64,000 bases of DNA from Escherichia phage vB_EcoM-BECP11, in sequence record MW286157.1; one strand, written 5' to 3'. Positions within the stretch are counted from its first letter, which is position 1; each line of letters starts with the position of its first letter. Positions 34,059 through 51,845 of the stretch are shown here, one piece after another. A program made the translations under genes and the position numbers. The notes beneath the pieces were generated by a model. The model did no database searches. It saw only the letters and a program-made list of their open reading frames with translations, and had not been told where the DNA came from.

Positions 34059-35646
<1,588 letters not shown>

Positions 35647-35649: not shown

Positions 35650-35679
35650 GTTTACAAGTCCCTCGTGTTGTGTTATAGT
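35650..35679 (+). promoter_or_regulatory. T4-type early promoter for alc
   Basis: GTTTAC 35650-35655, 18-bp spacer, TGTTATAGT. Confidence 0.55.
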
Positions 35680-35703
35680 AATCTTACTGACATAACATGA
35701 GGA
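35650..35703 (+). repeat. 54-bp promoter-leader repeat, copy A (upstream of alc)
   Basis: GTTTACAAGTCCCTCGTGTTGTGTTATAGTAATCTTACTGACATAACATGAGGA. Confidence 0.7.
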
Positions 35704-35707
35704 CTTT

Positions 35708-36214
35708 ATGATGGATTTGCAGCTTATTACTACTGAGATGGTCGTTGAAGCATACGGTGATACTACAGATGGGATTTCTGTATTTAAAGGAAATCGTCGA
35801 GTTGGATATATCACCGATCTTAAGAAAGATTTAGCTAAGCAAGTCAAGCGGAAAACGACCATTAAAGAATATCGAAATCGTCGTCTTGAGCAAGCCCGTG
35901 ATATGCTTCCTGATGCGGTTGAGGAGATGAAAGTCTTTTTAGAAAATCAGCTTGCGAAATATGATTGTGATGTGTTCATTAATCAGACTCAACCTAATGT
36001 TCATATTAACAACTGTAAATGCTATATCATCGTTAATCCTTTAACGGGAAAACATCGTCTTGGAATTAGTAATCCAAATCGTAGCGCATCAGATATGGCA
36101 GAAGATGTTGAGGCATGCTTTAAAATTTCTAAATCTCCAGCTGAACATCATATTTTAATTAACGGTCTTTCTCAAGACGATATTATAGAGGTTATTAAAA
36201 CTTTATGCAATTAA
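35708..36214 (+). CDS. alc: Alc, inhibitor of host transcription on cytosine-containing DNA
   Basis: MMDLQLITTEMVVEAYGDTTDGISVFKGNRRVGYIT matches T4 Alc as recalled; early promoter 35650-35679 upstream. Confidence 0.85.
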   Translation: MMDLQLITTEMVVEAYGDTTDGISVFKGNRRVGYITDLKKDLAKQVKRKTTIKEYRNRRLEQARDMLPDAVEEMKVFLENQLAKYDCDVFINQTQPNVHINNCKCYIIVNPLTGKHRLGISNPNRSASDMAEDVEACFKISKSPAEHHILINGLSQDDIIEVIKTLCN

Positions 36215-36558
36215 GTAATACGACAACAGGCTTGCTATTAATTGTAATTGCATTGGGCGGAACTTCTTTAATTTTAAAAGATAAAATTGAAAGATTAGAA
36301 ACGTCTGTTGTAGAAATTACAAAAACGGCCAATGAAAACGCTTTAGCATTAAATAATTTGCGAATTCAGTATAATTATATTGATGCGATGAATAATAAAA
36401 ATCGTGAGGCAATTGCTGCTATTGAGCGTGAAAATGAAAAACTGTGCAAAGACGCAAAGAAGGCGGATGTGGTGGCTCATAAGCCAGGATTGGTTGAAAA
36501 ACAAATCAACAACTCCTTCAACAAGTTCGCAGAAGACATCCAGGACCTTTCTAAATGA
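36205..36558 (+). CDS. pseT.3: inner-membrane spanin (i-spanin, Rz-like; T4 pseT.3 position)
   Basis: N-terminal TM helix TGLLLIVIALGGTSLIL then a coiled-coil-like periplasmic domain; paired with a downstream lipoprotein ORF. Confidence 0.7.
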   Translation: MQLSNTTTGLLLIVIALGGTSLILKDKIERLETSVVEITKTANENALALNNLRIQYNYIDAMNNKNREAIAAIERENEKLCKDAKKADVVAHKPGLVEKQINNSFNKFAEDIQDLSK

Positions 36559-36854
36559 TTAAACTGTCGGCAGTAATATTATCTATTGGTCTTCTAGTTG
36601 GTTGTTCGACAAAGCCTCTAGAAGTAAAGAAAGAAACAGTTCATCCTAATTGGCCAGTACAAATAAAGTCATATGATGAAGCTAAACTATCCTGGCAAGT
36701 TAAAGTTATTGATGGTAAAGCTTGGGTCGGTATGCTATTCGAAGATTCCCAGGAATTTCGTATTTGGCTTAATGATGTAAAACGATATGTACATGACCAG
36801 AAAACTATGATATGTTATTATCGCCAAGAGTTAAAAGAGGATAAATGCAAATGA
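36555..36854 (+). CDS. pseT.2: outer-membrane spanin lipoprotein (o-spanin, Rz1-like; T4 pseT.2 position)
   Basis: signal peptide with lipobox MIKLSAVILSIGLLVGC-S; ATGA overlap with the i-spanin gene. Confidence 0.7.
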   Translation: MIKLSAVILSIGLLVGCSTKPLEVKKETVHPNWPVQIKSYDEAKLSWQVKVIDGKAWVGMLFEDSQEFRIWLNDVKRYVHDQKTMICYYRQELKEDKCK

Positions 36855-37075
36855 TTTCATGGCATCAATTTGAACATCTCAAAGGATTGATTTATGAATC
36901 CGAGATGGCTGCAATGATTTACGGACGCCAGATTCAGCGGTTAGAATCTTTACCTCCAACTAATGATGTTTTATTAGCTCAATCACGTGCTAATCTTAAA
37001 AATGAATACCAAAATAAGTGGGGCAAAGCATCTAAAGACCTGCATGATTATATTCAATCATTGGTTGAGAAATAA
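36845..37075 (+). CDS. hypothetical protein (76 aa)
   Basis: ORF overlapping the upstream stop. Confidence 0.45.
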   Translation: MQMISWHQFEHLKGLIYESEMAAMIYGRQIQRLESLPPTNDVLLAQSRANLKNEYQNKWGKASKDLHDYIQSLVEK

Positions 37076-37078
37076 TAA

Positions 37079-38300
<1,222 letters not shown>

Positions 38301-38301
<1 letters not shown>

Positions 38302-38498
38302 TGGCGTGGCATCATGAAACTTGGGCTATTATTATTGTAAATAGTGGTTTAGTCGGTACTAGTAATGGGCAATTTTGTGTATTCACTAGTGAAATCAGAG
38401 CTTGGGAGGAATGCCTTAAATTAAGAGAAAAGAATCCTGATGTTGAACTAACAGTAAAGAAAACTAAACTGCCTTTACCATGGAAAACTTATGAATAA
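38301..38498 (+). CDS. hypothetical protein (65 aa)
   Basis: TAATG overlap with pseT stop. Confidence 0.4.
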
Positions 38499-38691
38499 CA
38501 TAGAAAAGATTTATCGTCTTTGTGATAAAATTGAAAAAGAAAAGAAATATCTATTTTGTTTATGGCCTATTGTTGATGGAAGAGTAGGCTTAGATGTTCT
38601 TGATTATGAAACAGAAGACAAAGTAGATGGTTCAACTTTTGATAATGCGTTGGATGTTATTGATTGGCTCGAAGAAAATTATGTGAGGTAA
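38491..38691 (+). CDS. hypothetical protein (66 aa)
   Basis: ORF overlapping the upstream gene. Confidence 0.4.
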   Translation: MNNIEKIYRLCDKIEKEKKYLFCLWPIVDGRVGLDVLDYETEDKVDGSTFDNALDVIDWLEENYVR

Positions 38692-38693
38692 AT

Positions 38694-38969
38694 ATGTTTC
38701 CGACTTATTCTAAAATTGTAGAAGTAGTGTTTAGTCAAATTATCGCTAATAATATGTTTGAAAAGCTTGATAACGCAGCCGAGCTTCGAATTCATGCTCA
38801 AGTGACTCATGTATTGAACACTTTGCTTCCAGACCAGGTGGATTCTGTTGCCATCACGTTGTATCCAGGTTCCGCGCATATCATTGTTGTATTCGGTCTT
38901 GATGCTGAGCTAGTTATCAAAGGCGACATTCGTTTTGAATCACAGACATCAGAATTCAAAGCAATTTAA
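38694..38969 (+). CDS. hypothetical protein (91 aa)
   Basis: ATG after GAGGTAAAT; the longer track start overlaps the upstream gene. Confidence 0.45.
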   Translation: MFPTYSKIVEVVFSQIIANNMFEKLDNAAELRIHAQVTHVLNTLLPDQVDSVAITLYPGSAHIIVVFGLDAELVIKGDIRFESQTSEFKAI

Positions 38970-38971
38970 TA

Positions 38972-39001
38972 GTTTACTTTACGGTAGAGTTGTGATATTA
39001 T
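38972..39001 (+). promoter_or_regulatory. T4-type early promoter
   Basis: GTTTAC 38972-38977, 18-bp spacer, TGATATTAT. Confidence 0.5.
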
Positions 39002-39032
39002 AGCTCTACCAAAAACAAACGAGGAAATTGAA

Positions 39033-39560
39033 ATGAGCGAATGGTTTGAAGAAGATAAGGTTTATCGCTTTAAAACTGGGTATAAAGATATTTTTAATGA
39101 AACTTGCGGGGCTAATAAACGAATTGCCCAGTTTATTGGGGAAAATTCATTTAAAGTAAAAATAGATCCTGCGAAAAATGTTATTAGCATTAAACGCGAA
39201 ATTGATGACTGTTGGTATAAAGCTGTTGATGTAATGGGCGAATCCTATAAAGTTAGCCCGTTATTTTCAATTGCTTATATGTTAGAATATTCTTTTTTCG
39301 AAGAAGTTCAAAAAGATGATTCTGTCAGTAAATTTGAAATTAAAACTGATAAAGAAATTAAGTGGAAAGTAGTAGGTATTACTGGTTGTATGTTTTATAT
39401 CTATGCTCAAACTGATACGAAGGAAGAAGCTAAAAAGAAAGCTCTAGAATATCTTGAAGAGTATGAAGAAGGTCCAGTAATGATTACCCAAGATGCTGAA
39501 TTAGTTTCTGTCAAATTAGTTAAAAACGTTGAAAGTAAGGAGCTGGGATCAACATGCTAA
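39033..39560 (+). CDS. hypothetical protein (175 aa)
   Basis: RBS GAGGAAATTGAA, downstream of early promoter 38972-39001. Confidence 0.5.
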   Translation: MSEWFEEDKVYRFKTGYKDIFNETCGANKRIAQFIGENSFKVKIDPAKNVISIKREIDDCWYKAVDVMGESYKVSPLFSIAYMLEYSFFEEVQKDDSVSKFEIKTDKEIKWKVVGITGCMFYIYAQTDTKEEAKKKALEYLEEYEEGPVMITQDAELVSVKLVKNVESKELGSTC

Positions 39561-39790
39561 GTGAAAAACCAATTACTGTTAAAGAATTTCAAGAAAAAGT
39601 TAAACTATTTGCGCAGGAATTAGTAAATAAGGTTTCTGAACGATTTCCTGAAACATCGGTTCGTGTTATTACCGAAACTCCTCGTTCAGTATTAGTAATT
39701 GTGAATCCAGGTGATGGCGATCAAATATCGCATCTTAAATTGGATTTTGATGGATTAGTTGAAGCACAAAGGGTGTATGGCGTACTATGA
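39554..39790 (+). CDS. hypothetical protein (78 aa)
   Basis: ORF overlapping the upstream stop. Confidence 0.45.
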   Translation: MLSEKPITVKEFQEKVKLFAQELVNKVSERFPETSVRVITETPRSVLVIVNPGDGDQISHLKLDFDGLVEAQRVYGVL

Positions 39791-40125
39791 TGAATTTAAC
39801 TGATATAATTGATAATTGTCTTGAAAATGATACTGGCGATCATAGAGCGCTTGACTCTGAAACAGCACAGTTCATTAGAATAACTTTAATGAATGACACT
39901 CTGGTAAATAGTATTCATCCTTCTGTATATGATGCTATTATTGTGACGAAGTATCCAGTTGAGCTTCACAAAAAGATGGTTGGTGCAATTTTTATTGATA
40001 AGAAAAACCGCTTTAAAGATGGGCAGAATATAATTAGTTCTGTTATTAAAAGTATAACTAAACTTCGTCACGAAATTTATCGTGTTGAAACTGCTAAATC
40101 TGCTTATCTGGTGATTATGAAATGA
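39787..40125 (+). CDS. hypothetical protein (112 aa)
   Basis: ATGA overlap on both sides. Confidence 0.5.
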   Translation: MMNLTDIIDNCLENDTGDHRALDSETAQFIRITLMNDTLVNSIHPSVYDAIIVTKYPVELHKKMVGAIFIDKKNRFKDGQNIISSVIKSITKLRHEIYRVETAKSAYLVIMK

Positions 40126-40703
40126 AAGCGAGTACAGTACTTCAAATTGCATATTTAGTATCGCAGGAATCAAAATGTTGCTCCTGGAAGGTAGGAGCAG
40201 TAATTGAAAAGAATGGACGTATTATTTCTACCGGATATAATGGTTCACCTGCTGGTGGTGTGAACTGTTGTGATTATGCTGCTGAGCAAGGTTGGTTGCT
40301 GAATAAGCCTAAACATACTATCATCCAAGGTCATAAGCCCGAATGTGTATCATTTGGTTCAACTGATCGTTTTGTCTTGGCAAAAGAACACCGGAGCGCT
40401 CACTCTGAATGGTCGTCTAAAAATGAAATTCATGCTGAACTAAATGCAATTTTGTTTGCTGCACGAAATGGTTCTTCTATTGAAGGTGCTACTATGTATG
40501 TAACACTTTCTCCTTGTCCAGATTGTGCAAAAGCGATAGCTCAATCTGGTATTAAAAAACTGGTTTATTGCGAAACATACGATAAAAATAAACCTGGCTG
40601 GGATGATATTCTGCGAAATGCGGGTATTGAAGTGTTTAATGTTCCTAAGAAAAACTTAAATAAGTTAAATTGGGAAAATATCAACGAATTCTGTGGTGAA
40701 TAA
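40122..40703 (+). CDS. cd: dCMP deaminase (193 aa)
   Basis: zinc-binding deaminase motifs HAELNAILFAA and SPCPDCAKAI; same length as T4 Cd. Confidence 0.9.
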   Translation: MKASTVLQIAYLVSQESKCCSWKVGAVIEKNGRIISTGYNGSPAGGVNCCDYAAEQGWLLNKPKHTIIQGHKPECVSFGSTDRFVLAKEHRSAHSEWSSKNEIHAELNAILFAARNGSSIEGATMYVTLSPCPDCAKAIAQSGIKKLVYCETYDKNKPGWDDILRNAGIEVFNVPKKNLNKLNWENINEFCGE

Positions 40704-40939
40704 TGAAATTTCGTTTGGTACAGCTCACAGCAATTAGTTCTTATTCTAACGAGAACATTTCATTTGCTGTAGAGTATAAGAAATATTTTTTCTCTAAATG
40801 GAAGCAGTATTATAAGTCAGAATGGGTTTGTATTGATAGACCGTATAGTTGGAAATCTGATTTAGAAAAATGCCAAAAATTGCTTTCCACTCTTAAAGAA
40901 CGTGGAACAACCCATATTAAAACTGTAATAGGTAAATAA
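40703..40939 (+). CDS. hypothetical protein (78 aa)
   Basis: TAATG overlap with cd stop. Confidence 0.45.
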   Translation: MKFRLVQLTAISSYSNENISFAVEYKKYFFSKWKQYYKSEWVCIDRPYSWKSDLEKCQKLLSTLKERGTTHIKTVIGK

Positions 40940-41248
40940 ATGAAATTGACAACTGAACAGAAAGTAGCAATTCGTGAAATTTTGAAAACTAAATTGTCCA
41001 TGGGTATTTCAAACGTGGTTTTTGAAAAGTCTGATGGTACTATTCGTACTATGAAAGGCACTCGTGATGCTGACTTTATGCCAACTATGCAAACCGGTAA
41101 ATTGACTGAATCTACTCGGAAAGAATCTACTGATATGATTCCGATATTTGATGTTGAACTCGGTGCATGGCGAGGTTTTTCTATTGACAAATTGATTTCT
41201 GTTAATGGTATGAAAGTTGAGCATTTACTCCAATTTATTGGTAAATAA
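40940..41248 (+). CDS. hypothetical protein (102 aa)
   Basis: ORF immediately after the upstream stop. Confidence 0.5.
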   Translation: MKLTTEQKVAIREILKTKLSMGISNVVFEKSDGTIRTMKGTRDADFMPTMQTGKLTESTRKESTDMIPIFDVELGAWRGFSIDKLISVNGMKVEHLLQFIGK

Positions 41249-41304
41249 ATGCTTTAAGAATTATTTGTTATTATTAATTCATCTGTTAACAAAAAGGAAA
41301 AACG

Positions 41305-41640
41305 ATGTCTGAAGTACAACAGCTACCAATTCGTGCTGTCGGTGAATATGTTATTTTAGTTTCTGAACCTGCACAAGCCGGTGATGAAGAAGTTACAGAA
41401 TCAGGACTTATTATTGGTAAACGTGTCCAAGGTGAAGTTCCTGAACTGTGTGTAGTTCACTCTGTTGGTCCTGATGTTCCTGAAGGTTTCTGCGAAGTCG
41501 GTGATTTGACTTCTCTTCCAGTTGGTCAAATTCGAAATGTTCCGCATCCTTTTGTAGCTCTGGGTCTTAAGCAGCCAAAAGAAATTAAACAAAAATTCGT
41601 CACTTGCCACTATAAAGCTATTCCATGTCTTTATAAGTGA
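41305..41640 (+). CDS. 31: co-chaperonin gp31 (GroES analogue, 111 aa)
   Basis: [39 protein letters not shown] matches T4 gp31 as recalled. Confidence 0.9.
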
Positions 41641-41648
41641 TATAAATA
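41641..41648 (+). promoter_or_regulatory. late promoter (TATAAATA) between 31 and rIII
   Basis: exact TATAAATA immediately after the gene 31 stop. Confidence 0.45.
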
Positions 41649-41787
41649 ATAATATGAATTGGGTGTCGGAATAATAAGTTAACCGAACAATTCTATGTGG
41701 TAGTCTACAACTGAGAGATCTGTCGAAAGAAGATGAAATTCAGAAGAACGTGACTACCGAGTTTTAATCTCTAACGAGAATTTTTAA

Positions 41788-42036
41788 ATGATTAAACAAT
41801 TACAACACGCTCTTGAACTGCAACGAAACGCATGGAATAATGGTCACGAAAACTATGGCGCATCTATTGATGTTGAAGCCGAAGCTCTTGAAATCCTGCG
41901 TTATTTCAAACATCTAAATCCTGCTCAAACTGCATTAGCTGCTGAGCTTCAGGAAAAAGATGAACTTAAGTATGCTAAGCCTCTGGCTTCTGCTGCACGA
42001 AAAGCAGTTCGTCACTTTGTGGTAACATTGAAGTAA
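41788..42036 (+). CDS. rIII: rIII lysis-inhibition accessory protein (82 aa)
   Basis: MIKQLQHALELQRNAWNNGHENYG... matches T4 RIII as recalled. Confidence 0.85.
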   Translation: MIKQLQHALELQRNAWNNGHENYGASIDVEAEALEILRYFKHLNPAQTALAAELQEKDELKYAKPLASAARKAVRHFVVTLK

Positions 42037-42281
42037 TTTATTGGAGATTCACTGCCTTAGTGTGAGCTAAAATCGAGGAGCCATCGAACTGTCTGATTAA
42101 TGATTTGCGAATCATTATAGTTTTAAGACCCCGGCAGTTTTATGGTGTACCTCTTGAATGTGAATGATGACGGGTTTATGGTTATCCTGGTCGTTAAATA
42201 CCCAAAAACCTATGTTCCCCTTAAGGGCTTGCGCAGGCAATGCCAATAAGTCCTGCATTTTCATTTAAAAGAGAATTTATA

Positions 42282-42458
42282 ATGGCAAAACAAGCTAAAG
42301 CAAAGAAAGCAGTTGAAAAGAAAGTTGGTGATTCTAAACGCGCTGGCTACAAGCGTGGGTCGAACTCTCGTATCAATCAAACTGTTGAGAAGATCATGCG
42401 CCGAGCACGTGCGGTTCTTCGAGATGATGCTTCTCGTTTTGGTAAGCAGAAAGCATAA
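42282..42458 (+). CDS. small highly basic protein (58 aa); alternative start 42240
   Basis: MAKQAKAKKAVEKKVGDSKRAGYKRGSNSRINQ... Lys/Arg-rich; followed by terminator 42465-42488. Confidence 0.45.
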   Translation: MAKQAKAKKAVEKKVGDSKRAGYKRGSNSRINQTVEKIMRRARAVLRDDASRFGKQKA

Positions 42459-42464
42459 GTTGAG

Positions 42465-42488
42465 GACTCCTTCGGGAGTCCTTTTTTA
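42465..42488 (+). terminator. rho-independent terminator
   Basis: GGACTCC-TTCG-GGAGTCC hairpin followed by TTTTTT. Confidence 0.7.
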
Positions 42489-42512
42489 TTTTCCAAAGAT
42501 TGCATAAAGTTG

Positions 42513-42542
42513 TTTACAGTATGGTTCCTTTGTGATAGTATT
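42513..42542 (+). promoter_or_regulatory. T4-type early promoter
   Basis: GTTTAC 42513-42518, 18-bp spacer, TGATAGTAT; follows terminator 42465-42488. Confidence 0.5.
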
Positions 42543-42568
42543 ATCTTACACAAACAAAGGAGAATAAA

Positions 42569-42901
42569 ATGAAAACGATTAATCTGAACGCTGCAGTTAA
42601 AGCTAAATGCTTCAATGGTGAATATAACGAAACTATGTGGTTCTTAATGGCAGTTGAAGGTGATATTATTGAAGTAGAAACAACAGAAGGTATGGGAACA
42701 GATTTCACCTTTACAATTCAAGTTCATAATTTCTTTACTGGTTGGATTTATGAATTGAATACAGTAATCGTTGGAAAAATTGAACAAAATGAATTAGGTG
42801 AATGGTATTATGTTACAGCTCGCCAACGTGCCGAACGCTTAATTGAGAAGATGAAAAAAGTCGGTAAACTTGACATGAAGCACTGGAAAGTAGTAAAATA
42901 A
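42569..42901 (+). CDS. hypothetical protein (110 aa)
   Basis: RBS AAGGAGAATAAA after early promoter 42513-42542. Confidence 0.5.
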   Translation: MKTINLNAAVKAKCFNGEYNETMWFLMAVEGDIIEVETTEGMGTDFTFTIQVHNFFTGWIYELNTVIVGKIEQNELGEWYYVTARQRAERLIEKMKKVGKLDMKHWKVVK

Positions 42902-42903
42902 TT

Positions 42904-42932
42904 GTTTACTTTGGTACAGGATATGATATTAT
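42904..42932 (+). promoter_or_regulatory. T4-type early promoter
   Basis: GTTTAC 42904-42909, 17-bp spacer, TGATATTAT. Confidence 0.5.
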
Positions 42933-42969
42933 ATACCTGTACCGCAATTAAACATCTCGGAGAACAAAA

Positions 42970-43335
42970 ATGAACTACATCAACTTTGAACGTAAATATG
43001 TTTCTAATGGTATTGCAGGTTCTATTGATACTATTTGCCTTTGGAAACATCAAAATGGATCAGTATGCGAAATTGAACAGTATATGACTCCTAACTACGT
43101 TTATATGCGATTTGAAAATGGCATCACGGTTTCAATCACAATGGAAGGTTCAAATTTTAAAATCGCTTTAGATGATGATTTTCGTCAACGCGATTTAGGG
43201 ACTCATCCTTGCTGGAATGGTGATAATCGCAAGCTTTTGGTTAAAACTTGGATTCGTCATATTCTGAGTAACAGAGCTAAACCTGAGCATCTTGAAGCAA
43301 TCTTTGATGTAGTTCTTAACGAATTTGATATTTAA
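42970..43335 (+). CDS. hypothetical protein (121 aa)
   Basis: RBS GGAGAACAAAA after early promoter 42904-42932. Confidence 0.5.
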   Translation: MNYINFERKYVSNGIAGSIDTICLWKHQNGSVCEIEQYMTPNYVYMRFENGITVSITMEGSNFKIALDDDFRQRDLGTHPCWNGDNRKLLVKTWIRHILSNRAKPEHLEAIFDVVLNEFDI

Positions 43336-43345
43336 AATAAAATGA

Positions 43346-43359
43346 GGGGCTTCGGCCCC
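43346..43359 (+). promoter_or_regulatory. intercistronic RNA hairpin
   Basis: GGGGC-TTCG-GCCCC followed by RBS. Confidence 0.5.
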
Positions 43360-43376
43360 TTACTGAGGAAAATATT

Positions 43377-43664
43377 ATGTTTATGACTACTTATTTTGAC
43401 ACCCGCAAAAATTTTTGTGAAGTGGTTTTCTCAAAGGCACCTAAAGACCTTCCTGCTCATTTGCAGCCTACCAGTGAATCGATTAAAAATTACGTTGATG
43501 TGGTTTGTCCTTTAGAATTCCGTACAGTAAATGGGCGTGATACTTTAGCTATCGCTAAACTTAATCGTGAAATTGACATTGACCCTTCAATTGCGCGTGA
43601 AATTAATATTTCTGATATTGGCGGCGGTAATGTTAAATCGCATGGTCTTCAGATGAGGTTCTAA
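43377..43664 (+). CDS. hypothetical protein (95 aa)
   Basis: RBS GAGGAAAATATT after hairpin 43346-43359. Confidence 0.5.
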   Translation: MFMTTYFDTRKNFCEVVFSKAPKDLPAHLQPTSESIKNYVDVVCPLEFRTVNGRDTLAIAKLNREIDIDPSIAREINISDIGGGNVKSHGLQMRF

Positions 43665-43861
43665 TGAAATTCTTTTTAGGTCAAACTGTTGAATTAAAGG
43701 GAGTTGGTATACCTGGATTAATTTCTAAGGTTCTACCTCCATTTAAATGGAGTGGTGTTCAAATAAAAGAGGCTTATATTGTTTCCTGGGTAGATGGAAA
43801 TGAAGACCTTCGTATGGGTGATGAATTGTCTCCTATTTACGGATTAAAGGAATTAGTATGA
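43664..43861 (+). CDS. hypothetical protein (65 aa)
   Basis: TAATG overlap with upstream gene. Confidence 0.4.
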   Translation: MKFFLGQTVELKGVGIPGLISKVLPPFKWSGVQIKEAYIVSWVDGNEDLRMGDELSPIYGLKELV

Positions 43862-44064
43862 ATATAATTAATAAGATTTTTGGAATTCAGTACATTAAGG
43901 TCACATATAAAGTAACAGATAAAAATCCATATACTGATGAACATGAAGAACCACAAGTTGAGTCTATTATATTAGAAAAGGACCCTAACTGGCCAGTTGA
44001 ATTTCGTCTTCCTTGCTATGGTCATTGGGCTGATGTTGAAATTATAAGTATTGAAAATGTCTGA
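43858..44064 (+). CDS. hypothetical protein (68 aa)
   Basis: ATGA overlap with upstream gene. Confidence 0.4.
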   Translation: MNIINKIFGIQYIKVTYKVTDKNPYTDEHEEPQVESIILEKDPNWPVEFRLPCYGHWADVEIISIENV

Positions 44065-44515
44065 GTTAGAGATTAGAAGCAATTTTAGATGGCCATCGTG
44101 TGCATTAAGTAATTTCGCCCAATGGCCTTTCGTCATGGATGGTATTCAATTCGGAGGTCTTGAAGGATTCCTCCAAGGATGCAAGGTGAAAAATGTTGAA
44201 CAACAAAAACGTATATTTGGGCTCTCCGGCTTGGCCGCCCAGCAAAGTGGAAGAGCTTATGCAAGAGCTGCGGACCGTGGGACGCTTTTCTGGCTTGGAA
44301 TTCCCTTTTCAAGATACTCTGCAGCATGGAAAGAGTTGTATACAAATGCATATTTTGAAGCAGCGATTCAAAACAAGGGGTTTCGTGATGCCTTACAAGC
44401 CTCTAAAGGAAAAATTTTGAAGCATAGCATGGCTAGTGGTCTAACAAAAGATGATACAATACTAACCGAAGCTGAATTTATTGATGTGTTAAACCTATTA
44501 AGAGACTCTCTATGA
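44051..44515 (+). CDS. NADAR-like (DUF1768/YbiA-like) protein (154 aa), assigned by motif only
   Basis: LSNFAQWPFVMDGIQFGGLEGFLQGCKV resembles the YbiA/NADAR signature FSNFAAWP..DG..........E.YFQA.K as I recall it; locally GC-richer codon usage. Confidence 0.45.
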   Translation: MKMSELEIRSNFRWPSCALSNFAQWPFVMDGIQFGGLEGFLQGCKVKNVEQQKRIFGLSGLAAQQSGRAYARAADRGTLFWLGIPFSRYSAAWKELYTNAYFEAAIQNKGFRDALQASKGKILKHSMASGLTKDDTILTEAEFIDVLNLLRDSL

Positions 44516-45348
44516 AGCCTACTATTTTGACTGATATTGACGGGGTGTGTTTAAGCTGGCAATCGGGCCTTCCTTATTTTGCCCAAAAATATAATCTTCC
44601 GTTGGAACATATTTTAAAAATGATTCAGGACGAAAAATTTATTTCTCCTGGTAAGCTCTTTAATTGCGATGAAGAACTTGGTGTTAAATTAATCGAAAAG
44701 TATAATCGTTCAGATTTTATTCGCTATTTGTCTCCATATAAAGATGCCCTGTGTGTAATTAACAAATTAAAAGAAGATTATAATTTTGTAGCTGTTACAG
44801 CACTGGGTGATTCTATTGACGCTCTGCTGAATCGTCAATTTAATTTGAATGCTCTTTTTCCTGGTGCCTTCTCAGAAGTATTGATGTGTGGTCATGATTC
44901 TTCAAAAGAAGAGTTGTTCAAAAAGGCAAAAGAGAAATATAACGTAATTTGTTATATTGACGATCTCGCTCACCACTGCGATCATGCGAGTGAAATATTA
45001 AATGTTCCTGTTTATTGGATGGCTCGAGGGGAGCGTGACAGTATTCCAAAAACTGCACAGCGAGTTTATACATGGAATGATGTAGAGAATAAGCTTTTTC
45101 CATCGAATGAAAATAAAGAAAGTTTTGATAGTGAAAAAGCTATAAAAGATGTAATTGAAAAGATGATTAAAAATGATTCTTTTCCTTGGAACACTACCTG
45201 GAGAACTCCTGGATTTAATCCTTATAATCTATATCATCCATATCAGACGCATCCGTTTCAGACATGGAACTATATTAAACCCGGTGGCATAGAGTATTTG
45301 TATAATAGACCTACTAGTGGTGATAATATTTTCCAAGGAGCATTCTAA
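44512..45348 (+). CDS. HAD-superfamily phosphatase-like protein (278 aa), putative nucleotidase
   Basis: N-terminal HAD motif I ILTDIDGV and a later acidic motif ICYIDDLAHH; function inferred from motifs only. Confidence 0.5.
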   Translation: MKPTILTDIDGVCLSWQSGLPYFAQKYNLPLEHILKMIQDEKFISPGKLFNCDEELGVKLIEKYNRSDFIRYLSPYKDALCVINKLKEDYNFVAVTALGDSIDALLNRQFNLNALFPGAFSEVLMCGHDSSKEELFKKAKEKYNVICYIDDLAHHCDHASEILNVPVYWMARGERDSIPKTAQRVYTWNDVENKLFPSNENKESFDSEKAIKDVIEKMIKNDSFPWNTTWRTPGFNPYNLYHPYQTHPFQTWNYIKPGGIEYLYNRPTSGDNIFQGAF

Positions 45349-45617
45349 TGTTTGTCGTTCACACTATTTATGAAAATGAAGGTAATACTACACGTGATTA
45401 CGGTCACGTAAATCAATTTTTTAGATGCAATCCAGAATTCCGAGCTCAAAAAGACGAACGAATTTTTAAAAAATGTGTAGAGCAAGGTTTCATTTACGTC
45501 AAGCACTGGATGCAAGGAAATAAAGTTAGAACCACGTACCACAGGTCTTTGACTGAGCTTAATGATGAATTGATTTATAATAGAGCTGTAAACCAAACTC
45601 TAAAGGATGAACAATGA
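45348..45617 (+). CDS. hypothetical protein (89 aa)
   Basis: TAATG overlap upstream; ATGA overlap with gene 30. Confidence 0.45.
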   Translation: MFVVHTIYENEGNTTRDYGHVNQFFRCNPEFRAQKDERIFKKCVEQGFIYVKHWMQGNKVRTTYHRSLTELNDELIYNRAVNQTLKDEQ

Positions 45618-47077
45618 TTCTTAAAATTCTGAATGAAATAGCATCTATTGGTTCAACTAAGCAAAAGCAAGCAATTCTTGAAAAGAATAAAGATAATGAA
45701 TTGCTCAAACGAGTATATCGTCTGACTTATTCTCGTGGGTTACAGTATTATATCAAGAAATGGCCTAAACCTGGTATTGCTACCCAGAGTTTTGGAATGT
45801 TGACTCTTACCGATATGCTTGACTTCATTGAATTCACATTAGCTACTCGGAAATTGACTGGAAATGCGGCAATTGAGGAATTAACTGGATATATTACTGA
45901 CGGTAAAAAAGATGATGTTGAAGTTTTGCGTCGGGTGATGATGCGAGACCTTGAATGCGGTGCATCAGTATCTATTGCAAACAAAGTTTGGCCAGGTTTA
46001 ATTCCTGAACAACCTCAAATGCTGGCAAGTTCTTATGATGAAAAAGGCATTAATAAGAATATCAAATTTCCAGCCTTTGCCCAATTAAAAGCTGATGGAG
46101 CTCGGTGCTTTGCTGAAGTCAGAGGTGATGAATTAGATGATGTTCGTCTTTTATCACGAGCTGGTAATGAATATCTAGGATTAGATCTTCTCAAGGAAGA
46201 GTTAATCAAAATGACTGCAGAAGCTCGCCAGATTCATCCAGAAGGTGTGTTAATTGATGGCGAATTGGTATACCATGAGCAAGTTGAAAAGGAGCCAGAA
46301 GGCCTAGATTTTCTTTTTGATGCTTATCCTGAAATTAGTAAAGCTAAAGAATTCGCCGAAGTAGCTGAATCACGTACTACTTCTAATGGAATCGCTAATA
46401 AATCTTTAAAGGGAACTATTTCAGAAAAAGAAGCTCAATGCATGAAGTTTCAGGTCTGGGATTATGTTCCGTTGGTAGAAATATACGGTCTTCCGGCGTT
46501 TCGTTTAAAATATGATGTACGTTTTTCTAAACTAGAACAAATGACATCAGGCTATGATAAAGTAATTTTAATTGAAAACCAAGTAGTAAATAACCTAGAT
46601 GAAGCTAAGGTAATTTACAAAAAGTATATTGACCAAGGTCTTGAAGGTATTATTCTCAAAAATATCGATGGATTATGGGAAAATGCTCGTTCAAAAAATC
46701 TTTATAAATTTAAAGAAGTAATTGATGTTGATTTAAAAATTGTAGGAATTTATCCTCACCGTAAAGACCCTACTAAAGCAGGTGGTTTCATTCTTGAATC
46801 AGAGTGTGGAAAAATTAAAGTAAATGCTGGTTCAGGCTTAAAAGATAAAGCCGGCGTAAAATCACATGAACTTGACCGTACTCGCATTATGGAAAACCAA
46901 AATTATTATATTGGAAAAATTCTAGAGTGCGAATGCAACGGCTGGGTAAAATTAGATGGACGTACTGATTACGTTAAGCTATTTCTTCCAATTGCAATTC
47001 GTTTACGTGAAGATAAAACTAAAGCTAATACGTTCGAAGATGTATTTGGCGATTTTCATGAGGTAACTGGTTTATGA
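45614..47077 (+). CDS. 30: ATP-dependent DNA ligase (487 aa)
   Basis: adenylation motif KADGAR (FAQLKADGARCFAEV); near-identical to T4 DNA ligase as recalled, same length. Confidence 0.95.
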   Translation: MILKILNEIASIGSTKQKQAILEKNKDNELLKRVYRLTYSRGLQYYIKKWPKPGIATQSFGMLTLTDMLDFIEFTLATRKLTGNAAIEELTGYITDGKKDDVEVLRRVMMRDLECGASVSIANKVWPGLIPEQPQMLASSYDEKGINKNIKFPAFAQLKADGARCFAEVRGDELDDVRLLSRAGNEYLGLDLLKEELIKMTAEARQIHPEGVLIDGELVYHEQVEKEPEGLDFLFDAYPEISKAKEFAEVAESRTTSNGIANKSLKGTISEKEAQCMKFQVWDYVPLVEIYGLPAFRLKYDVRFSKLEQMTSGYDKVILIENQVVNNLDEAKVIYKKYIDQGLEGIILKNIDGLWENARSKNLYKFKEVIDVDLKIVGIYPHRKDPTKAGGFILESECGKIKVNAGSGLKDKAGVKSHELDRTRIMENQNYYIGKILECECNGWVKLDGRTDYVKLFLPIAIRLREDKTKANTFEDVFGDFHEVTGL

Positions 47078-47259
47078 AAGCTTACTTAGAAACAATTGTC
47101 GTGGCTCAAAAAGAAGGTGGAGATGTTTCCACTGCGGTATCGCAGGTTATTCTTGAATTCCCAGATAAACTAGCATATGATGAATTCACGGAAAGATTTG
47201 ATCCATATGAAAAAGGTCCAAAGTTTGAAGTATATCGTACTCTTTTAGCTCTCTATTAA
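47074..47259 (+). CDS. hypothetical protein (61 aa)
   Basis: ATGA overlap with ligase stop; followed by hairpin 47263-47278. Confidence 0.4.
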   Translation: MKAYLETIVVAQKEGGDVSTAVSQVILEFPDKLAYDEFTERFDPYEKGPKFEVYRTLLALY

Positions 47260-47262
47260 TTA

Positions 47263-47278
47263 AAGGCCTTCGGGCCTT
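47263..47278 (+). promoter_or_regulatory. intercistronic RNA hairpin upstream of alt
   Basis: AAGGCC-TTCG-GGCCTT. Confidence 0.5.
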
Positions 47279-47315
47279 TAATTTTATAAATAGAATAAAC
47301 ACTAGAGAGGATAAC

Positions 47316-49409
47316 ATGGAACTTATTACAGAATTATTTGACGAAGATACTACTCTTCCGATTACAAACTTAAATCCAAAGAAGAAAATACCACAAATTT
47401 TTTCAGTTCATGTTGATGATGCAATTGAACAACCAGGCTTTCGTTTATGTACCTATACATCTGGAGGTGATACTAATCGCGATTTAAAGATGGGCGATAA
47501 AATGATGCATATTGTTCCTTTTACATTAACTGCTAAAGGCTCAATTGCTAAATTAAAAGGTCTTGGTCCAAGCCCAATTAATTATATCAATTCAGTTTTT
47601 ACTGTTGCAATGCAAACGATGCGTCAATATAAAATTGATGCCTGCATGCTTCGTATTCTTAAGTCTAAAACTGCTGGCCAAGCTCGACAAATTCAAGTTA
47701 TTGCTGATAGACTTATCCGTAGTCGTTCAGGTGGCAGATACGTCCTTCTTAAGGAACTCTGGGATTACGATAAAAAGTATGCATATATTCTTATACATCG
47801 CAAAAATGTATCATTAGAAGACATTCCAGGAGTTCCAGAAATTAGCACTGAACTCTTTACTAAAGTTGAATCGAAGGTCGGTGATGTTTATATCAATAAA
47901 GATACTGGAGCTCAAGTAACTAAAAATGAAGCAATTGCAGCATCTATTGCACAAGAAAATGATAAACGTTCTGACCAAGCTGTAATCGTTAAAGTTAAAA
48001 TTTCCCGTAGAGCAATTGCACAAAGTCAGTCATTGGAATCTTCTAGATTTGAAAGTGAATTATTCCAGAAGTATGAATCTACAGCAGCCAATTTTAATAA
48101 ACCAGCTACTGCACCTTTAATTCCCGAAGCAGAAGAAATGAAAATTGGAATTAATTCATTAGCTTCTAAAACAAAGGCAGCAAAAATTATTGCTGAAGGA
48201 ACGGCAGATGAACTTCACTATGATTATAAATTCTTTCCAATGAGTCAAGTCGGTGAAGTTTCAGAAAAAATTAAAGAAGTAATTTTTAATGCAATTAAAA
48301 ATGAACCAACTACTTCAATAAAATGTTTAGAGAAATACGCAGCAGCTGTAAATCAATTCTTTGAAGATTATAAAGATAAATGGCTTGCTAATCATAATAA
48401 AAATCGTAAAGGACAACCAGATGAAGTCTGGGAAGAAATAACTAAAAATTCCTGGAACGCAGCAAAAACTAAATTCCTCAAACGAATGATTTACAGTTTT
48501 TCTGGAATTGGTGCTGGTCCAATGATTGATATTACTATTGCCCGCGATGGTTCTAAATATACTCCATCACAAAAGCGTGGCATTAGAGAATATTGCGGTT
48601 CAGGATATACTGACATCAATAATCTTCTTTTAGGTCGTTACAATCCAGAACGATACGATGTAATGAGTGAAAAAGAAATTGAATCTGCTATAAATAACTT
48701 AGATTCAGCTTTTGAAAATGGTGACCGTATACCAGAAGGCATTACAGTTTATCGTGCTCAAAGTATGACTGCTCCTATATATGAAGCGTTAGTTAAAAAT
48801 AAAGTGTTCTACTTCAGAAATTTTGTATCTACTTCTTTAACTCCTATCATTTTTGGACGTTTTGGAATCACACATGCTGGTATTGGTCTTTTAGAACCAG
48901 AAGCTCGCAATGAATTAACAGTTGATAAAAATGAAGAAGGAATAACTATTAATCCAAACGAAATAAGAGCGTATAAAGAAAATCCTGAATATGTTAAAGT
49001 TCAAATAGGATGGGCAATTGATGGAGCTCATAAAGTTAATGTTGTATATCCAGGAAGTCTCGGAATAGCAACAGAAGCTGAAGTTATTCTACCACGCGGA
49101 TTGATGGTCAAGGTTAATAAAATAACTGATGCTTCTAATAATGACGGAACAACATCTAATAATACAAAACTCATTCAAGCTGAAGTTATGACCACGGAAG
49201 AGCTCACCGAATCGGTAATCTATGATGGAGACCATTTAATGGAAACTGGTGAATTGGTTGCAATGACAGGTGATATTGAAATAGAAGACAGAGTTGACTT
49301 TGCATCATTTGTTTCATCAAATATTAAACAGAAAGTAGAATCATCTCTTGGAATTATTGCGTCTTGCATAGATATTACAAACATGCCTTACAAGTTCGTT
49401 CAAGGATAA
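47316..49409 (+). CDS. alt: Alt, capsid-packaged mono-ADP-ribosyltransferase (697 aa)
   Basis: N-terminus MELITELFDEDTTLPITNLNPKKKIPQIFSVHVDD matches T4 Alt as recalled; ART motifs YRAQ, FVSTSL, EAEVILPRG. Confidence 0.9.
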   Translation: MELITELFDEDTTLPITNLNPKKKIPQIFSVHVDDAIEQPGFRLCTYTSGGDTNRDLKMGDKMMHIVPFTLTAKGSIAKLKGLGPSPINYINSVFTVAMQTMRQYKIDACMLRILKSKTAGQARQIQVIADRLIRSRSGGRYVLLKELWDYDKKYAYILIHRKNVSLEDIPGVPEISTELFTKVESKVGDVYINKDTGAQVTKNEAIAASIAQENDKRSDQAVIVKVKISRRAIAQSQSLESSRFESELFQKYESTAANFNKPATAPLIPEAEEMKIGINSLASKTKAAKIIAEGTADELHYDYKFFPMSQVGEVSEKIKEVIFNAIKNEPTTSIKCLEKYAAAVNQFFEDYKDKWLANHNKNRKGQPDEVWEEITKNSWNAAKTKFLKRMIYSFSGIGAGPMIDITIARDGSKYTPSQKRGIREYCGSGYTDINNLLLGRYNPERYDVMSEKEIESAINNLDSAFENGDRIPEGITVYRAQSMTAPIYEALVKNKVFYFRNFVSTSLTPIIFGRFGITHAGIGLLEPEARNELTVDKNEEGITINPNEIRAYKENPEYVKVQIGWAIDGAHKVNVVYPGSLGIATEAEVILPRGLMVKVNKITDASNNDGTTSNNTKLIQAEVMTTEELTESVIYDGDHLMETGELVAMTGDIEIEDRVDFASFVSSNIKQKVESSLGIIASCIDITNMPYKFVQG

Positions 49410-49412
49410 ATC

Positions 49413-51470
49413 ATGGAACTTATTACAGAATTATTTGACGGCGCTTCGGCGCCGGTTGTTAACTTAAATCCTAAGCATAAAATACCTCAAATTTTTGCTA
49501 TTCAAGCAGGTGAAGAAAGCGTGCTTCCTGGATTTAGATTTTGTACATACACCTCTGGCGGTGATACGAATAAAAACGTTAAGCCAGGCGACAAAATGAT
49601 GCATATCGTAATGATAGGTGTTAATGAGAAACTATCATTAGTTAAGCTTAAAAACTTGGGTGGAAATCCAATTGGCGTCATTAATGCTGTTTTTGATACT
49701 GCTCTTCAAACAATGAAGCAGTATAAAATTGATGCATGCCTATTCCGCGTACTAAAAAGTAAAACAAATGGCGCAGCTCGTCAAATGCAAGTTATTGCTG
49801 ACCGTTTAGTACGTACTAAAGGAGCAGGTCGATATGTTCTTTTAAAGGAAATCTGGGATTATGATAAAAAGTACGCATATATTATGGTTTACCGTAAAAA
49901 TGCCAATTTAGAAGACATTCCAGGTGTACCTCCTATTTCAACCGAGTTATTCACAAAAGTTGAATCAAAGGTTGGTGATGTTTATGTAGACGTTAAAACA
50001 GGTAATGCTGTTCCTAAAGCTGTTGCTGTTGCTGCTTCTATTGCTTTAGAAAATGATAAGCGCACGGATCAAGCTGTTATTCAGAAAACTAAAATTAGTC
50101 GTCGATTAGCAGCACAAGCTCAATATTCTACTGTTGATGCTTCACTTCAGGGTGATAGCTTCGCTGCTAAGAAATATCAAGAGTTTGAATCTAAAGTTCC
50201 GGTATATAAAGCAGAAGGACCAATGAACTCTGGCGTTATTCAGGTTGGTTCAAACTTTAGCAAAGGAGCTATCGGTGGTATGAGAAGTGCTTCTCGTTTT
50301 AAATCTAGTGATTATGAACTCGAAAGCTTCCGAAATCATATTGCATTGGCCCATGCACGTTTACGCGATCCATCTATCAAGCTGCAGAGCGATATAACAT
50401 ATCAAGGTTCTCAAGAATATTTAAAGAATAAAGAATTCTTTGATTATAAAACTGATAAAATTTTAAGCGATCTTGCTGACATTAATATTTCTAATAGCTT
50501 TGATGTTATTAAGAAAATTGTCAATGATTTAGTTAAAGGTTCTAAAGCTACACCAGATGAAAAGACAGCTATTATTCAATTTGTAATGAACGGAATTTAT
50601 AAATTAATTGATGAATCTGCTGCTCAGGCATATGAATATGCAAGCACTGAAGTAACTCCAAAAGGATTAACTCAGGCTGAGTCTGATGTAATTGAAGATT
50701 ATTGCGCAGATTCATATGTTGAAATGAACTCGTTCCTTCTAGGTAAACCTGATTCTACCCGTGAAGAATATATGGAACGAGCTATTAAACATATTGAGAC
50801 GCTGGATTCTGCATTTTCTAAAGGTTCAGTTCTTCCTCCAGGAACTACTCTTTATCGTGGGCAAGAAGTTACCTTTAAAACTTTACGTCATAATATAGAA
50901 AATAAAATGTTCTATTTCAAGAACTTTGTATCTACTTCACTCAAGCCAAATATCTTCGGTGAATATGGTAAAAATTATATGGCCTTAGATGATTCCGGAG
51001 CAGTATTTTCTGGTGAAGGAGAAGGTTCAGTTGATGCTGAAGATTTAATGCATATGGGTAGTCATTCTACATATGCGAATGAAGACGCTGAAACTAATGT
51101 AGGTATGGTAATTAAAGGAGCTGAACGAGTTAAAGTTATCGTTCCAGGTCATTTATCAGGATTTCCATCCGAAGCTGAAGTTATTTTGCCGCGTGGAATT
51201 TTACTGAAGATTAATAAAGTAAGTACGTACATGATGAAAGAAACTGCTTATAACAAGTATCTAATCGAAGGTACAATCGTTCCTCCTTCTGAACAATTAG
51301 AAGAATCAGTATATGATGGCGACCATCTGATGGAAACTGGTGAAGTTCGTCCAATGGCTGGATTTAATCAATTCCTTGTAGAAGAATCAAAAGAAGAGGA
51401 AAACGAAGTTTCTCAAATCTTAGCTTCTTTGGTTAACATCAACGGAATGTCTAAAAAGTTCAAAATGTAG
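49413..51470 (+). CDS. second Alt-like ADP-ribosyltransferase, tandem paralogue (685 aa)
   Basis: MELITELFDGASAPVVNLNPKHKIPQIF...; retains YRGQ, FVSTSL and EAEVILPRG motifs; central region diverges from the first copy. Confidence 0.8.
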   Translation: MELITELFDGASAPVVNLNPKHKIPQIFAIQAGEESVLPGFRFCTYTSGGDTNKNVKPGDKMMHIVMIGVNEKLSLVKLKNLGGNPIGVINAVFDTALQTMKQYKIDACLFRVLKSKTNGAARQMQVIADRLVRTKGAGRYVLLKEIWDYDKKYAYIMVYRKNANLEDIPGVPPISTELFTKVESKVGDVYVDVKTGNAVPKAVAVAASIALENDKRTDQAVIQKTKISRRLAAQAQYSTVDASLQGDSFAAKKYQEFESKVPVYKAEGPMNSGVIQVGSNFSKGAIGGMRSASRFKSSDYELESFRNHIALAHARLRDPSIKLQSDITYQGSQEYLKNKEFFDYKTDKILSDLADINISNSFDVIKKIVNDLVKGSKATPDEKTAIIQFVMNGIYKLIDESAAQAYEYASTEVTPKGLTQAESDVIEDYCADSYVEMNSFLLGKPDSTREEYMERAIKHIETLDSAFSKGSVLPPGTTLYRGQEVTFKTLRHNIENKMFYFKNFVSTSLKPNIFGEYGKNYMALDDSGAVFSGEGEGSVDAEDLMHMGSHSTYANEDAETNVGMVIKGAERVKVIVPGHLSGFPSEAEVILPRGILLKINKVSTYMMKETAYNKYLIEGTIVPPSEQLEESVYDGDHLMETGEVRPMAGFNQFLVEESKEEENEVSQILASLVNINGMSKKFKM

Positions 51471-51499
51471 TTTACAAGTCCCTCGTATTGTGTTATAGT
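51470..51499 (+). promoter_or_regulatory. T4-type early promoter (repeat of the alc promoter-leader)
   Basis: GTTTAC 51470-51475, 18-bp spacer, TGTTATAGT; about 54 bp near-identical to 35650-35703. Confidence 0.55.
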
Positions 51500-51523
51500 A
51501 GTTTTACTGACATAACATGAGGA
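51470..51523 (+). repeat. 54-bp promoter-leader repeat, copy B (downstream of the alt pair)
   Basis: GTTTACAAGTCCCTCGTATTGTGTTATAGTAGTTTTACTGACATAACATGAGGA, about 4 mismatches to copy A. Confidence 0.7.
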
Positions 51524-51530
51524 ACACAAA

Positions 51531-51821
51531 ATGAAATCTTCTTTGCGCTTTTTAGGTCAAGAACTCGTCGTTGAAGGCGTTATTCCCGCTGATAACGCTT
51601 TCAATGAAGCAGTTTATGATGAATTTATTAAAATTTTCGGAACCGATAAAAAGTTTGGAATTTTTCCTTCTGAAAATTTTTCAAAGCCAGAACAGACTGA
51701 AAGTATTTTCCAAGGTGTAGTAACAGGTAAATTTGAGTCAGAAGCTCCGGTAAAAATTGAGGTTTATATTGAAGAAACCTCTGTTGCTTCAGTTGCTGCT
51801 TTTATTTCATTCCGTAAATAA
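51531..51821 (+). CDS. hypothetical protein (96 aa), in the position of T4 alt.-1
   Basis: RBS GAGGAACACAAA after early promoter 51470-51499; followed by hairpin 51828-51845. Confidence 0.5.
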   Translation: MKSSLRFLGQELVVEGVIPADNAFNEAVYDEFIKIFGTDKKFGIFPSENFSKPEQTESIFQGVVTGKFESEAPVKIEVYIEETSVASVAAFISFRK

Positions 51822-51827
51822 AAATAT

Positions 51828-51845
51828 GGGGACCTTTCGGTCCCC
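51828..51845. promoter_or_regulatory. hairpin between convergent genes (ORF 51531-51821 and gene 54)
   Basis: GGGGACC-TTTC-GGTCCCC. Confidence 0.5.

Follow-up and report, generated by a model that had tools for sequence, protein, structure and literature searches.

In bacteriophage T4, the translation initiation regions of e, soc, 49, and I-TevI are sequestered in long transcripts, and a promoter located in the DNA of the 5' strand of the sequestering structure gives rise to a short RNA that can be translated (PMC3014915). A second type of known element is the promoter early stem-loop (PeSL) cassette, described for RB49/phi1, PST/T4, and nt-1/KVP40, in which a stem-loop upstream of the promoter acts as a terminator; these cassettes cluster in hyperplastic regions beside indels (PMC2839356, PMC4122927). 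We analyzed a 64,000-nucleotide stretch of Escherichia phage vB_EcoM-BECP11 (MW286157.1; hereafter the window), in which a 54-bp sequence, the 54-mer, is present upstream of alc (copy A) and again upstream of alt.-3 (copy B). We consider it probable that the 54-mer is an early promoter placed within an RNA hairpin that masks the downstream ribosome-binding site (RBS) in read-through RNA, and that this arrangement is old at alc and was copied to alt.-3.

The window belongs to Tequatrovirus, with 97% identity to Shigella phage Sf23 and 95.7% identity to RB14 over the 20 kb compared, and its + strand is the early-transcribed strand of T4. Copies A and B are identical at 51 of 54 bases (94.4%), in agreement with the value of about 93% given in a first-pass annotation of this DNA, and differ at repeat positions 18, 32, and 34. 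With up to 3 mismatches allowed, the two copies were the sole matches in the window, and 100 dinucleotide shuffles yielded none. An independent repeat search recovered the same pair (family D11) at a spacing of 15,820. The identity is abrupt at both ends, with the G of GTTTAC at the left edge and GAGGA at the right edge, and the genes that flank the copies are unrelated (rnlA and the second alt paralogue upstream of A and B, respectively; alc and alt.-3 downstream). GTTTAC, the extended -10 TGTTATAGT, and GAGGA, which the first-pass annotation had listed as common to the pair, were all found in each copy. Its further statement that both copies begin at the stop codon of the upstream gene was exact for copy B (G of TAG, 51468-51470) and only approximate for copy A, which lies 3 nucleotides past the TAA of rnlA (35644-35646). 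Gene duplication was ruled out as the origin of the repeat, as BLASTP of Alc against Alt.-3 found nothing and the identity stops at GAGGA.

Both copies were scored as sigma-70/T4-early promoters with 10 of 12 matches plus the upstream TG, followed by a Shine-Dalgarno (SD) sequence and a gene. The predicted transcription starts (Table 1) were placed by the usual distance of 6 to 7 nucleotides from the -10; in T4 the starts would be near 136300 and 123057 on the minus strand. According to a time-resolved transcriptome and proteome of T4, alc and alt.-3 are early at both the RNA and the protein level; of the genes upstream of the copies, rnlA has early RNA and late protein, alt.-1 and alt.-2 have middle RNA, and alt is late, all of these classes being at the resolution of genes rather than of start sites (PMC9697503). 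Lying directly downstream of middle and late genes, the early gene alt.-3 requires an early promoter of its own, and copy B provides one. The proposal that these promoter-leader repeats drive early expression of alc and of the open reading frame (ORF) at 51531 (alt.-3) was borne out as to the promoter and the SD, given the consensus match and T4 classes that fit independent early promoters; what had been overlooked is a hairpin that pairs the spacer and -10 with the SD, which changes the purpose of the element.

Each copy is a long imperfect palindrome that folds into an RNA hairpin of 22-24 bp, in which the promoter spacer and the -10 pair with the SD. The 5' arm, AAGUCC(C)UCGUGUUGUGUUAU, is made up of the spacer and the -10; a small apical stem-loop follows, and the 3' arm, ACAUAACAUGAGGACUU, is made up of the leader and the SD GAGGA. 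Two mismatches weaken the stem of window copy B, an A.C one due to G18A and a C.A one against the local 3' flank; the T4-type copy B hairpin has a folding energy of -23.0 kcal/mol. Because the -10 hexamer lies within the 5' arm, RNA from the embedded promoter must be without that arm, whereas RNA started upstream has both arms. The calculated cost of opening the RBS differed accordingly between the two RNAs, at 1-4 versus 11-16 kcal/mol: 3.8 kcal/mol in own-promoter RNA versus 14.8 kcal/mol in read-through RNA for window copy A, 2.1 versus 11.3 kcal/mol for window copy B, 3.0 versus 12.2 kcal/mol for T4 copy A, and 0.9 versus 15.0 kcal/mol for T4 copy B. For two generic early promoters at 1598 and 23128, the cost shifted by 2 kcal/mol or less. 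Opening energy was used in place of the unpaired probability of the SD, which discriminated copy B poorly because of a weak local helix in the short transcript.

From rnlA to copy A, a terminator scan found no terminator-like site, and from the late-promoter motif at 47285 to copy B it gave only weak + strand matches. That motif (TATAAATA), which is absent within either 54-mer copy, is a likely source of late read-through RNA that would reach copy B. Intrinsic termination at the copies themselves was ruled out; the tails (CUUUAUGAUG at A, ACACAAAAUG at B) have no U-tract, and the scan called no terminator at either. A search of Rfam returned no family at the site and a chance match to snoR121 nearby (E = 0.53).

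In the mechanism that we propose, the spacer and -10 of an early sigma-70 promoter would form the 5' strand of the hairpin, and the leader and SD of the next gene would form the 3' strand. Read-through RNA, coming from rnlA and earlier genes at site A and from late or middle alt transcripts at site B, would carry both strands, fold, and hide the RBS. RNA from the embedded promoter would start in the loop or the 3' strand and, being without the 5' strand, would leave the SD open. In this way alc and alt.-3 would be translated essentially only from their own early promoters, in the first minutes of infection, despite later read-through RNA. T4 uses Alc to shut off transcription of the host from DNA that contains cytosine; a gating of alc to own-promoter RNA, if it occurs, would explain how the protein stays strictly early despite long overlapping transcripts.

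Other T4-like genera also have alc and alt.-3, conserved at less than 60% amino acid identity. Blastn with the 54-mer gave no match in these genera, and the 54-mer is confined to the close relatives of T4. Upstream of alc in the other genera, the same order was found in syntenic position, namely GTTTACA, an arm complementary to the SD, the -10, and a leader with the SD arm, in sequences that differ by genus (Table 1). Single-protein locus searches of IMG/VR returned 5-6 Tequatrovirus loci each, and the wider sample came from alignment-based searches; for alc it comprised 43 IMG/VR loci from diverse T4-like contigs, with 32 distinct upstream sequences. In 23 of the 32, with z from -3.4 to -7, at least 3 SD bases were paired with bases upstream of the predicted start; the arm pairs were of at least 10 different kinds. 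When 25 alc-upstream sequences were aligned with MAFFT and folded with RNAalifold, no consensus structure emerged, since the register of the 3' arms differs from lineage to lineage. We therefore used a test that does not require alignment, in which duplex energies were calculated for all spacers against all leaders of 17 lineage representatives, those without a hairpin included. The mean spacer-leader duplex energy was -13.97 kcal/mol for cognate and -7.38 kcal/mol for non-cognate combinations, with 0 of 100,000 permutations attaining the observed sum. The arms at the alc site covary, and selection therefore acts on the pairing itself; such covariation in many lineages is phylogenetic proof of structure. 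The hairpin-promoter design is ancestral at the alc site.

An additional arrangement was seen at this site in Gaprivervirus. In Escherichia phage VR7 (L015, 18689-19003), and likewise in L041, L042, and L071, rnlA and alc are separated by an extra inserted ORF of 77 amino acids (ORF243c in VR7), which is annotated as Alc-like. ORF243c is preceded by a GGGG...CCCC hairpin with a -35-like sequence (TGTACAAG) in its loop, and then by a -10, a PeSL-like layout at the position that the SD-masking hairpin occupies in other genera.

Several observations weigh against SD masking as the function of the hairpin. Pairing with the SD at alc is absent from the Mosigvirus-like sequences L055 and L069, from L068 and L054, and from the Acinetobacter phage sequence L073, and in L050, L067, and L057 a long hairpin around the -10 ends just before the SD. 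Given these exceptions, SD masking may not be the sole property selected. The stems outside Tequatrovirus are nearly all Watson-Crick, such that G.U content cannot separate sense RNA from antisense RNA or DNA; overall there were 16 G.U and 5 A.C appositions, and the sense strand folded more stably in only 8 of 21 sequences, making the strand test (G.U versus A.C, and sense versus antisense stability) informative for Tequatrovirus and equivocal elsewhere. Within the window, the SD of the short copy B transcript is mostly paired in the weak local helix, yet is cheap to open, and copy B is the one that carries the stem-weakening G18A. Finally, the start site and the masking effect are predictions.

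The same exceptions bear on whether the hairpin was selected for processing or stability of the read-through RNA, by RNase III-type cleavage or as a protective structure, instead of for masking. The Tequatrovirus stem is nearly perfect at 22-24 bp, which is long enough for RNase III, and L050, L067, and L057 keep the long hairpin around the -10 without covering the SD, as do the window promoters at 38973 and 42905. However, the core that is conserved in most lineages is a pairing of 9-14 bp with the SD, which is too short for RNase III, and the 3' arm takes in the SD in 23 of 32 sequences. The target of RegB, GGAG, is absent from the GAGGA of the 54-mer, and a review of T4 post-transcriptional control has no mention of RNase III (PMC3014915). 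We regard processing as unlikely, although it is the strongest of the alternatives to masking that we considered. The two window promoters just named (38973-39035 and 42905-42972) are early-type promoters in long hairpins whose arms, GGTAGAGTTGTG..ATAGCTCTACC and GGTACAGGATATG..ATATACCTGTACC, respectively, flank the -10 and do not reach the SD.

We also compared site B. Outside Tequatrovirus it was represented by 14 loci (9 distinct sequences from at least 5 genera), which have an ordinary early promoter, TAG/TTTACA...ATGAGGA, with a short spacer hairpin. Pairing between SD and spacer was found at none of these 14 loci, and the long site-B hairpin is therefore confined to Tequatrovirus. Because the hairpin is ancestral at alc and limited to Tequatrovirus at alt.-3, copy B is most simply explained as the alc cassette, copied once onto alt.-3 in the Tequatrovirus ancestor. 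The cassette would have replaced the interior of an ordinary alt.-3 early promoter and thereby created the 54-bp repeat, probably by short-patch conversion bounded by motifs that were already common to both promoters (left, GTTTACA(AG); right, ACATGAGGA). For both its direction and its mechanism, this is a probable reconstruction from the sequences compared. If correct, it would be a clean natural example of a regulatory cassette transplanted between unrelated genes, and would suggest that alt.-3 is needed at the same time as alc.

A replacement of this size is also what would be expected if the 54-mer were a mobile PeSL cassette of the Arbiol/Comeau/Krisch type, in which the stem-loop terminates or attenuates upstream transcription and the cassette shuffles the flanking ORFs. 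The 54-mer is a repeated cassette with a T4-type promoter (the PST/T4 PeSL consensus is TTTACW-N17-TAYWAT), an SD, and an ATG at the 3' end (PMC4122927), and crossovers located between the -10 and the SD/ATG have been observed in RB49 (PMC2839356). In contrast to a PeSL, its stem is built from promoter and SD, and no U-tract is present at A, at B, or in the other genera, where the tails are A-rich. Moreover, both sites are syntenic, gene content is invariant in 499 genomes, and no variable ORFs flank either site. A true terminator-then-promoter layout does occur elsewhere in the window (42462-42541), for contrast. A PeSL-type function at the two sites is thus improbable, more so than RNA processing.

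Within Tequatrovirus, the 54-mer was found at 997 places in 499 phage records, two per genome, with the sole exception of a partial record that has one copy. All 997 matches were at least 92.6% identical and came from the close relatives of T4; in T4 itself both copies are present and are identical to each other at 53 of 54 bases. Both sites are syntenic in the 499 records, and at least 80% of the 20-kb interval is covered by 445 records. In genome annotation, the 54-mer can serve to mark two predicted starts of transcription units in each Tequatrovirus genome. Sequence variation was assessed in 15 Tequatrovirus genomes (30 copies). The apical loop (repeat positions 32-34) varied freely, and most substitutions in the stem preserved or improved pairing. 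G16A, which changes G.U to A-U, was observed four times at each site; G40A changes U.G to U-A, T27C adds a C-G pair, and C11T turns the C.A mismatch specific to site B into U-A. In copy B of phage GBLB0003, C15T and G50A occur together and convert C-G to U-A, and in copy B of one contig three changes in the 5' arm result in a perfect stem with the local GAGGAAC flank (-25.7 kcal/mol). A few substitutions weakened the stem, G18A in window copy B being an example. Mean pairwise differences were 1.54 for copy A and 2.97 for copy B, copy A being the better conserved of the two. No concerted evolution or ongoing conversion was detected in these genomes, with A-B distances of 2.27 within and 2.28 between genomes (P = 0.54). 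Because these distances are equal, the likeness of A and B reflects shared origin and constraint, not ongoing homogenization.

The pair had been described in the first-pass annotation as a substrate for deletion or duplication of the intervening 15.8 kb. No deletion, duplication, or extra copy was present in the 499 records, and no junction-type rearrangement with a breakpoint in the 54-mer was seen among them. Between the copies lie two genes that are essential in T4, gene 30 for DNA ligase and gene 31 for a head assembly co-chaperone. The ancient replacement at site B is the only recombination-like event that the data support. A related possibility is that the 54-mer is simply a strong early promoter and leader that was duplicated, with an incidental palindrome, and that its main significance is as a recombination substrate for the 15.8 kb. 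The promoter consensus is good at both copies, and 54 bp is about a usable size, T4 recombination using homology of less than 50 bp according to Singer et al. (1982) as quoted in PMC2839356. In addition, G16A, C11T, T27C, and G32A were seen at both sites, and the haplotype C11T+G16A is carried by site A of CJY920 and by site B of LF73P1. However, these shared polymorphisms are structure-preserving transitions that could recur independently, there was no concerted evolution, and one or three copies were found in 0 of 499 genomes apart from the single partial record. The complementarity of spacer and SD at alc is kept with differing sequences across lineages and is hence not incidental. Covariation largely refutes the duplicated-promoter explanation, and we consider it very unlikely, slightly more so than the PeSL cassette.

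The substitutions are also informative as to whether the inverted repeat acts as DNA, where it could be the operator of a dimeric regulator or could modulate the promoter by forming a cruciform or single-strand structure. The repeat is centered on the -10 and the start site, and outside Tequatrovirus the arms form perfect palindromes, with both strands folding equally well. Against this, the arms differ almost wholly between lineages and the distance between them varies, whereas complementarity to the SD, needless for an operator, is conserved. In Tequatrovirus the arms use G.U pairs and a bulge that make the sense RNA far more stable than the antisense (-24.4 versus -15.4), and the substitutions seen interconvert G.U, A-U, and G-C. 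Of all the alternatives, a DNA-level function appears the least credible, with only a very slight chance of being correct. Masking of the SD within RNA is the explanation that we retain for the comparisons below.

Table 1. Positions of the 54-mer copies, their promoters and hairpins, and neighboring features in the window, with arm pairs found at alc
Feature	Position	Strand	Details
Copy A of 54-mer	35650-35703	+	rnlA (gene 63)-alc intergenic region; gene names from RB14/T4 annotation
Copy A promoter	35651-35679	+	-35 TTTACA 35651-35656; 17-bp spacer; TG-extended -10 TATAGT 35674-35679; predicted +1 near A35686
Copy A hairpin	35656-35706	+	-23.9 kcal/mol; z = -7.0; 0/200 shuffles as stable; SD GAGGA 35699-35703
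rnlA (gene 63)	34522-35646	+	Gene upstream of copy A; its transcripts would read into A
alc, inhibitor of host transcription	35711-36214	+	Start per T4/RB14 annotation; in-frame ATG also at 35708
Copy B of 54-mer	51470-51523	+	Between second alt paralogue (alt.-2) and alt.-3; first base is G of TAG stop
Copy B promoter	51471-51499	+	TTTACA-17-TATAGT with TG; predicted +1 near A51506
Copy B hairpin	51478-51525	+	-16.8 kcal/mol; z = -3.5; arms as in A; SD GAGGA 51519-51523
alt.-3, conserved hypothetical protein	51531-51821	+	96 amino acids; gene served by copy B
Tandem alt paralogues	47316-51470	+	alt 47316-49409; alt.-2 49413-51470
T4 late-promoter motif	47285-47292	+	TATAAATA; just upstream of alt
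Bidirectional terminator-like hairpin	51826-51847	both	ATGGGGACC..GGTCCCCAT; between alt.-3 and convergent gene 54; ends copy B transcription unit
Gelderlandvirus alc arm pair			TCTCCGTTTAGTT / AACTAAACGGAGA
Karamvirus alc arm pair			TCTCCATTTG / CAAATGGAGA
Jiaodavirus alc arm pair			TCCTCATCAG / CTGATGAGGA
Dhakavirus alc arm pair			TCTCCTCAT / ATGAGGAGA
Further alc arm pair			CCTCTCGTTTTTG / CAAAAACGAGAGG

Some features of the surroundings of the two copies were recorded as well. The TAG stop of the upstream gene overlaps the -35 (TAG/TTTACA), as seen at 51468-51476 of the window and in L014, L026-L030, L038, and L050-L067; the alt.-3 site shows this overlap, as does the alc site in many genera, and it is conserved genome compaction. 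The alt paralogues of the window are full-length (697 and 685 amino acids), with segments that are 72-80% identical in DNA. Only remnants of the second paralogue (alt.-1, alt.-2) are present in T4, and the 54-mer copies are consequently 13.2 kb apart there versus 15.8 kb here. Downstream of alt.-3, Salmonella phage Melville and Klebsiella phage PhiKpNIH-6 have a terminator annotated at the place equivalent to 51826-51847. Elsewhere in the window, a terminator-like hairpin (AAGGGCTTCGGCCCTT or GGGGCTTCGGCCCC) occurs in three copies (4983-5020, 5210-5247, and 43336-43373), which have similar flanks although each is in a different intergenic region. At 62991-63566, a tandem direct repeat (two copies of 288 nucleotides, 76% identical) lies in a + strand frame that is open to the end of the window, and looks like a repeated protein domain of about 96 amino acids.

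A further early promoter of the window, that of gene 30.8 (42462-42571; TTTACA at 42513, ATG at 42569), resembles the two copies in its pairing. Pairing occurs between its spacer, TTCCTTTGT, and the SD region, ACAAAGGAG; the calculated cost of opening the RBS is 0.4 kcal/mol in its own transcript versus 10.4 kcal/mol in read-through RNA. At the same site VR7 has TCCAGTG/CACTGGA, such that the pairing covaries. A strong terminator hairpin (42462-42483) precedes this promoter, which is a PeSL-like layout. Since gene 30.8 has the same logic with covariation in another genus, the device may be more general among early genes. We put forward only tentatively, and with less conviction than the function proposed for the 54-mer itself, that masking of the SD by a promoter's own spacer could be a general control of early genes that has not been catalogued before. 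It would hold Alc, Alt.-3, gp30.8, and perhaps further immediate-early proteins to the first minutes of infection regardless of the amount of read-through RNA, with gates that would be portable between genes by short-patch conversion at shared promoter and SD motifs.

When compared to T4 early promoters in general (GTTTAC ... TG-n-TAnnnT), the 54-mer has the same -35 (GTTTAC/TTTACA), 17-bp spacer, TG-extended -10, and SD leader, and the stop codon of the upstream gene likewise abuts or overlaps the -35. The window contains many generic relatives of these promoters (repeat families D2, D4, and D10). One generic family (6068-6139, 6574-6645, 9710-9781, 26403-26474, and 27117-27188) has similarity well beyond the hexamers, the common parts being an A/T-rich upstream tract, GTTTACA, a CCAC...GTGG spacer hairpin, TACTAT, and a CTATCAAC(T)AC leader; at the generic promoter at 6093, opening the RBS is also more costly in read-through RNA (13.6 versus 7.6 kcal/mol). 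The 54-mer differs from this generic type, which has the short CCAC...GTGG spacer hairpin and the CTATCAAC leader, in being a subtype with a long arm complementary to its own SD instead. The 54-mer copies are also 94-100% identical to each other, whereas other early promoters agree at consensus positions only.

With the PeSL cassettes, the 54-mer shares the character of a repeated intergenic unit with an early promoter, SD, ATG, and stem-loop, and the replacement of one cassette by another at site B is the kind of exchange that has been proposed for PeSLs. In contrast, the stem of the 54-mer is not upstream of the promoter but spans from the promoter spacer to the SD and is without a U-tract, and the 54-mer is at two fixed syntenic sites in 499 records and not beside indels or ORF swaps. 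The A/T-rich tract of PeSLs lies, in the case of the 54-mer, upstream in the preceding coding sequence and outside the repeat.

The closest likeness is to e, soc, 49, and I-TevI of T4. The word "alc" does not appear in a review of T4 post-transcriptional control, whose examples include none of alc, alt.-3, and 30.8 (PMC3014915). A targeted literature search returned no paper on an alc leader hairpin, with the older literature (Liebig and Rüger 1989; the 1994 T4 book) outside its reach, and a search for a genome-wide 5'-end map of T4 likewise returned none. In the e/soc/49/I-TevI group the SD and/or the AUG is sequestered in a helix; similarly, the SD of the 54-mer is in a predicted stable helix in read-through RNA and the promoter is in the DNA of the 5' strand, with the same geometry and predicted energetics. 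The difference is in the promoter and in the timing: the promoter of that group is late (TATAAATA) and translation is delayed, whereas the promoter of the 54-mer is early and translation is predicted to be confined to the early period. By analogy, the 54-mer would be the same mechanism with another promoter class. If so, the classic T4 device that is documented for late promoters extends to early ones, with the opposite timing.

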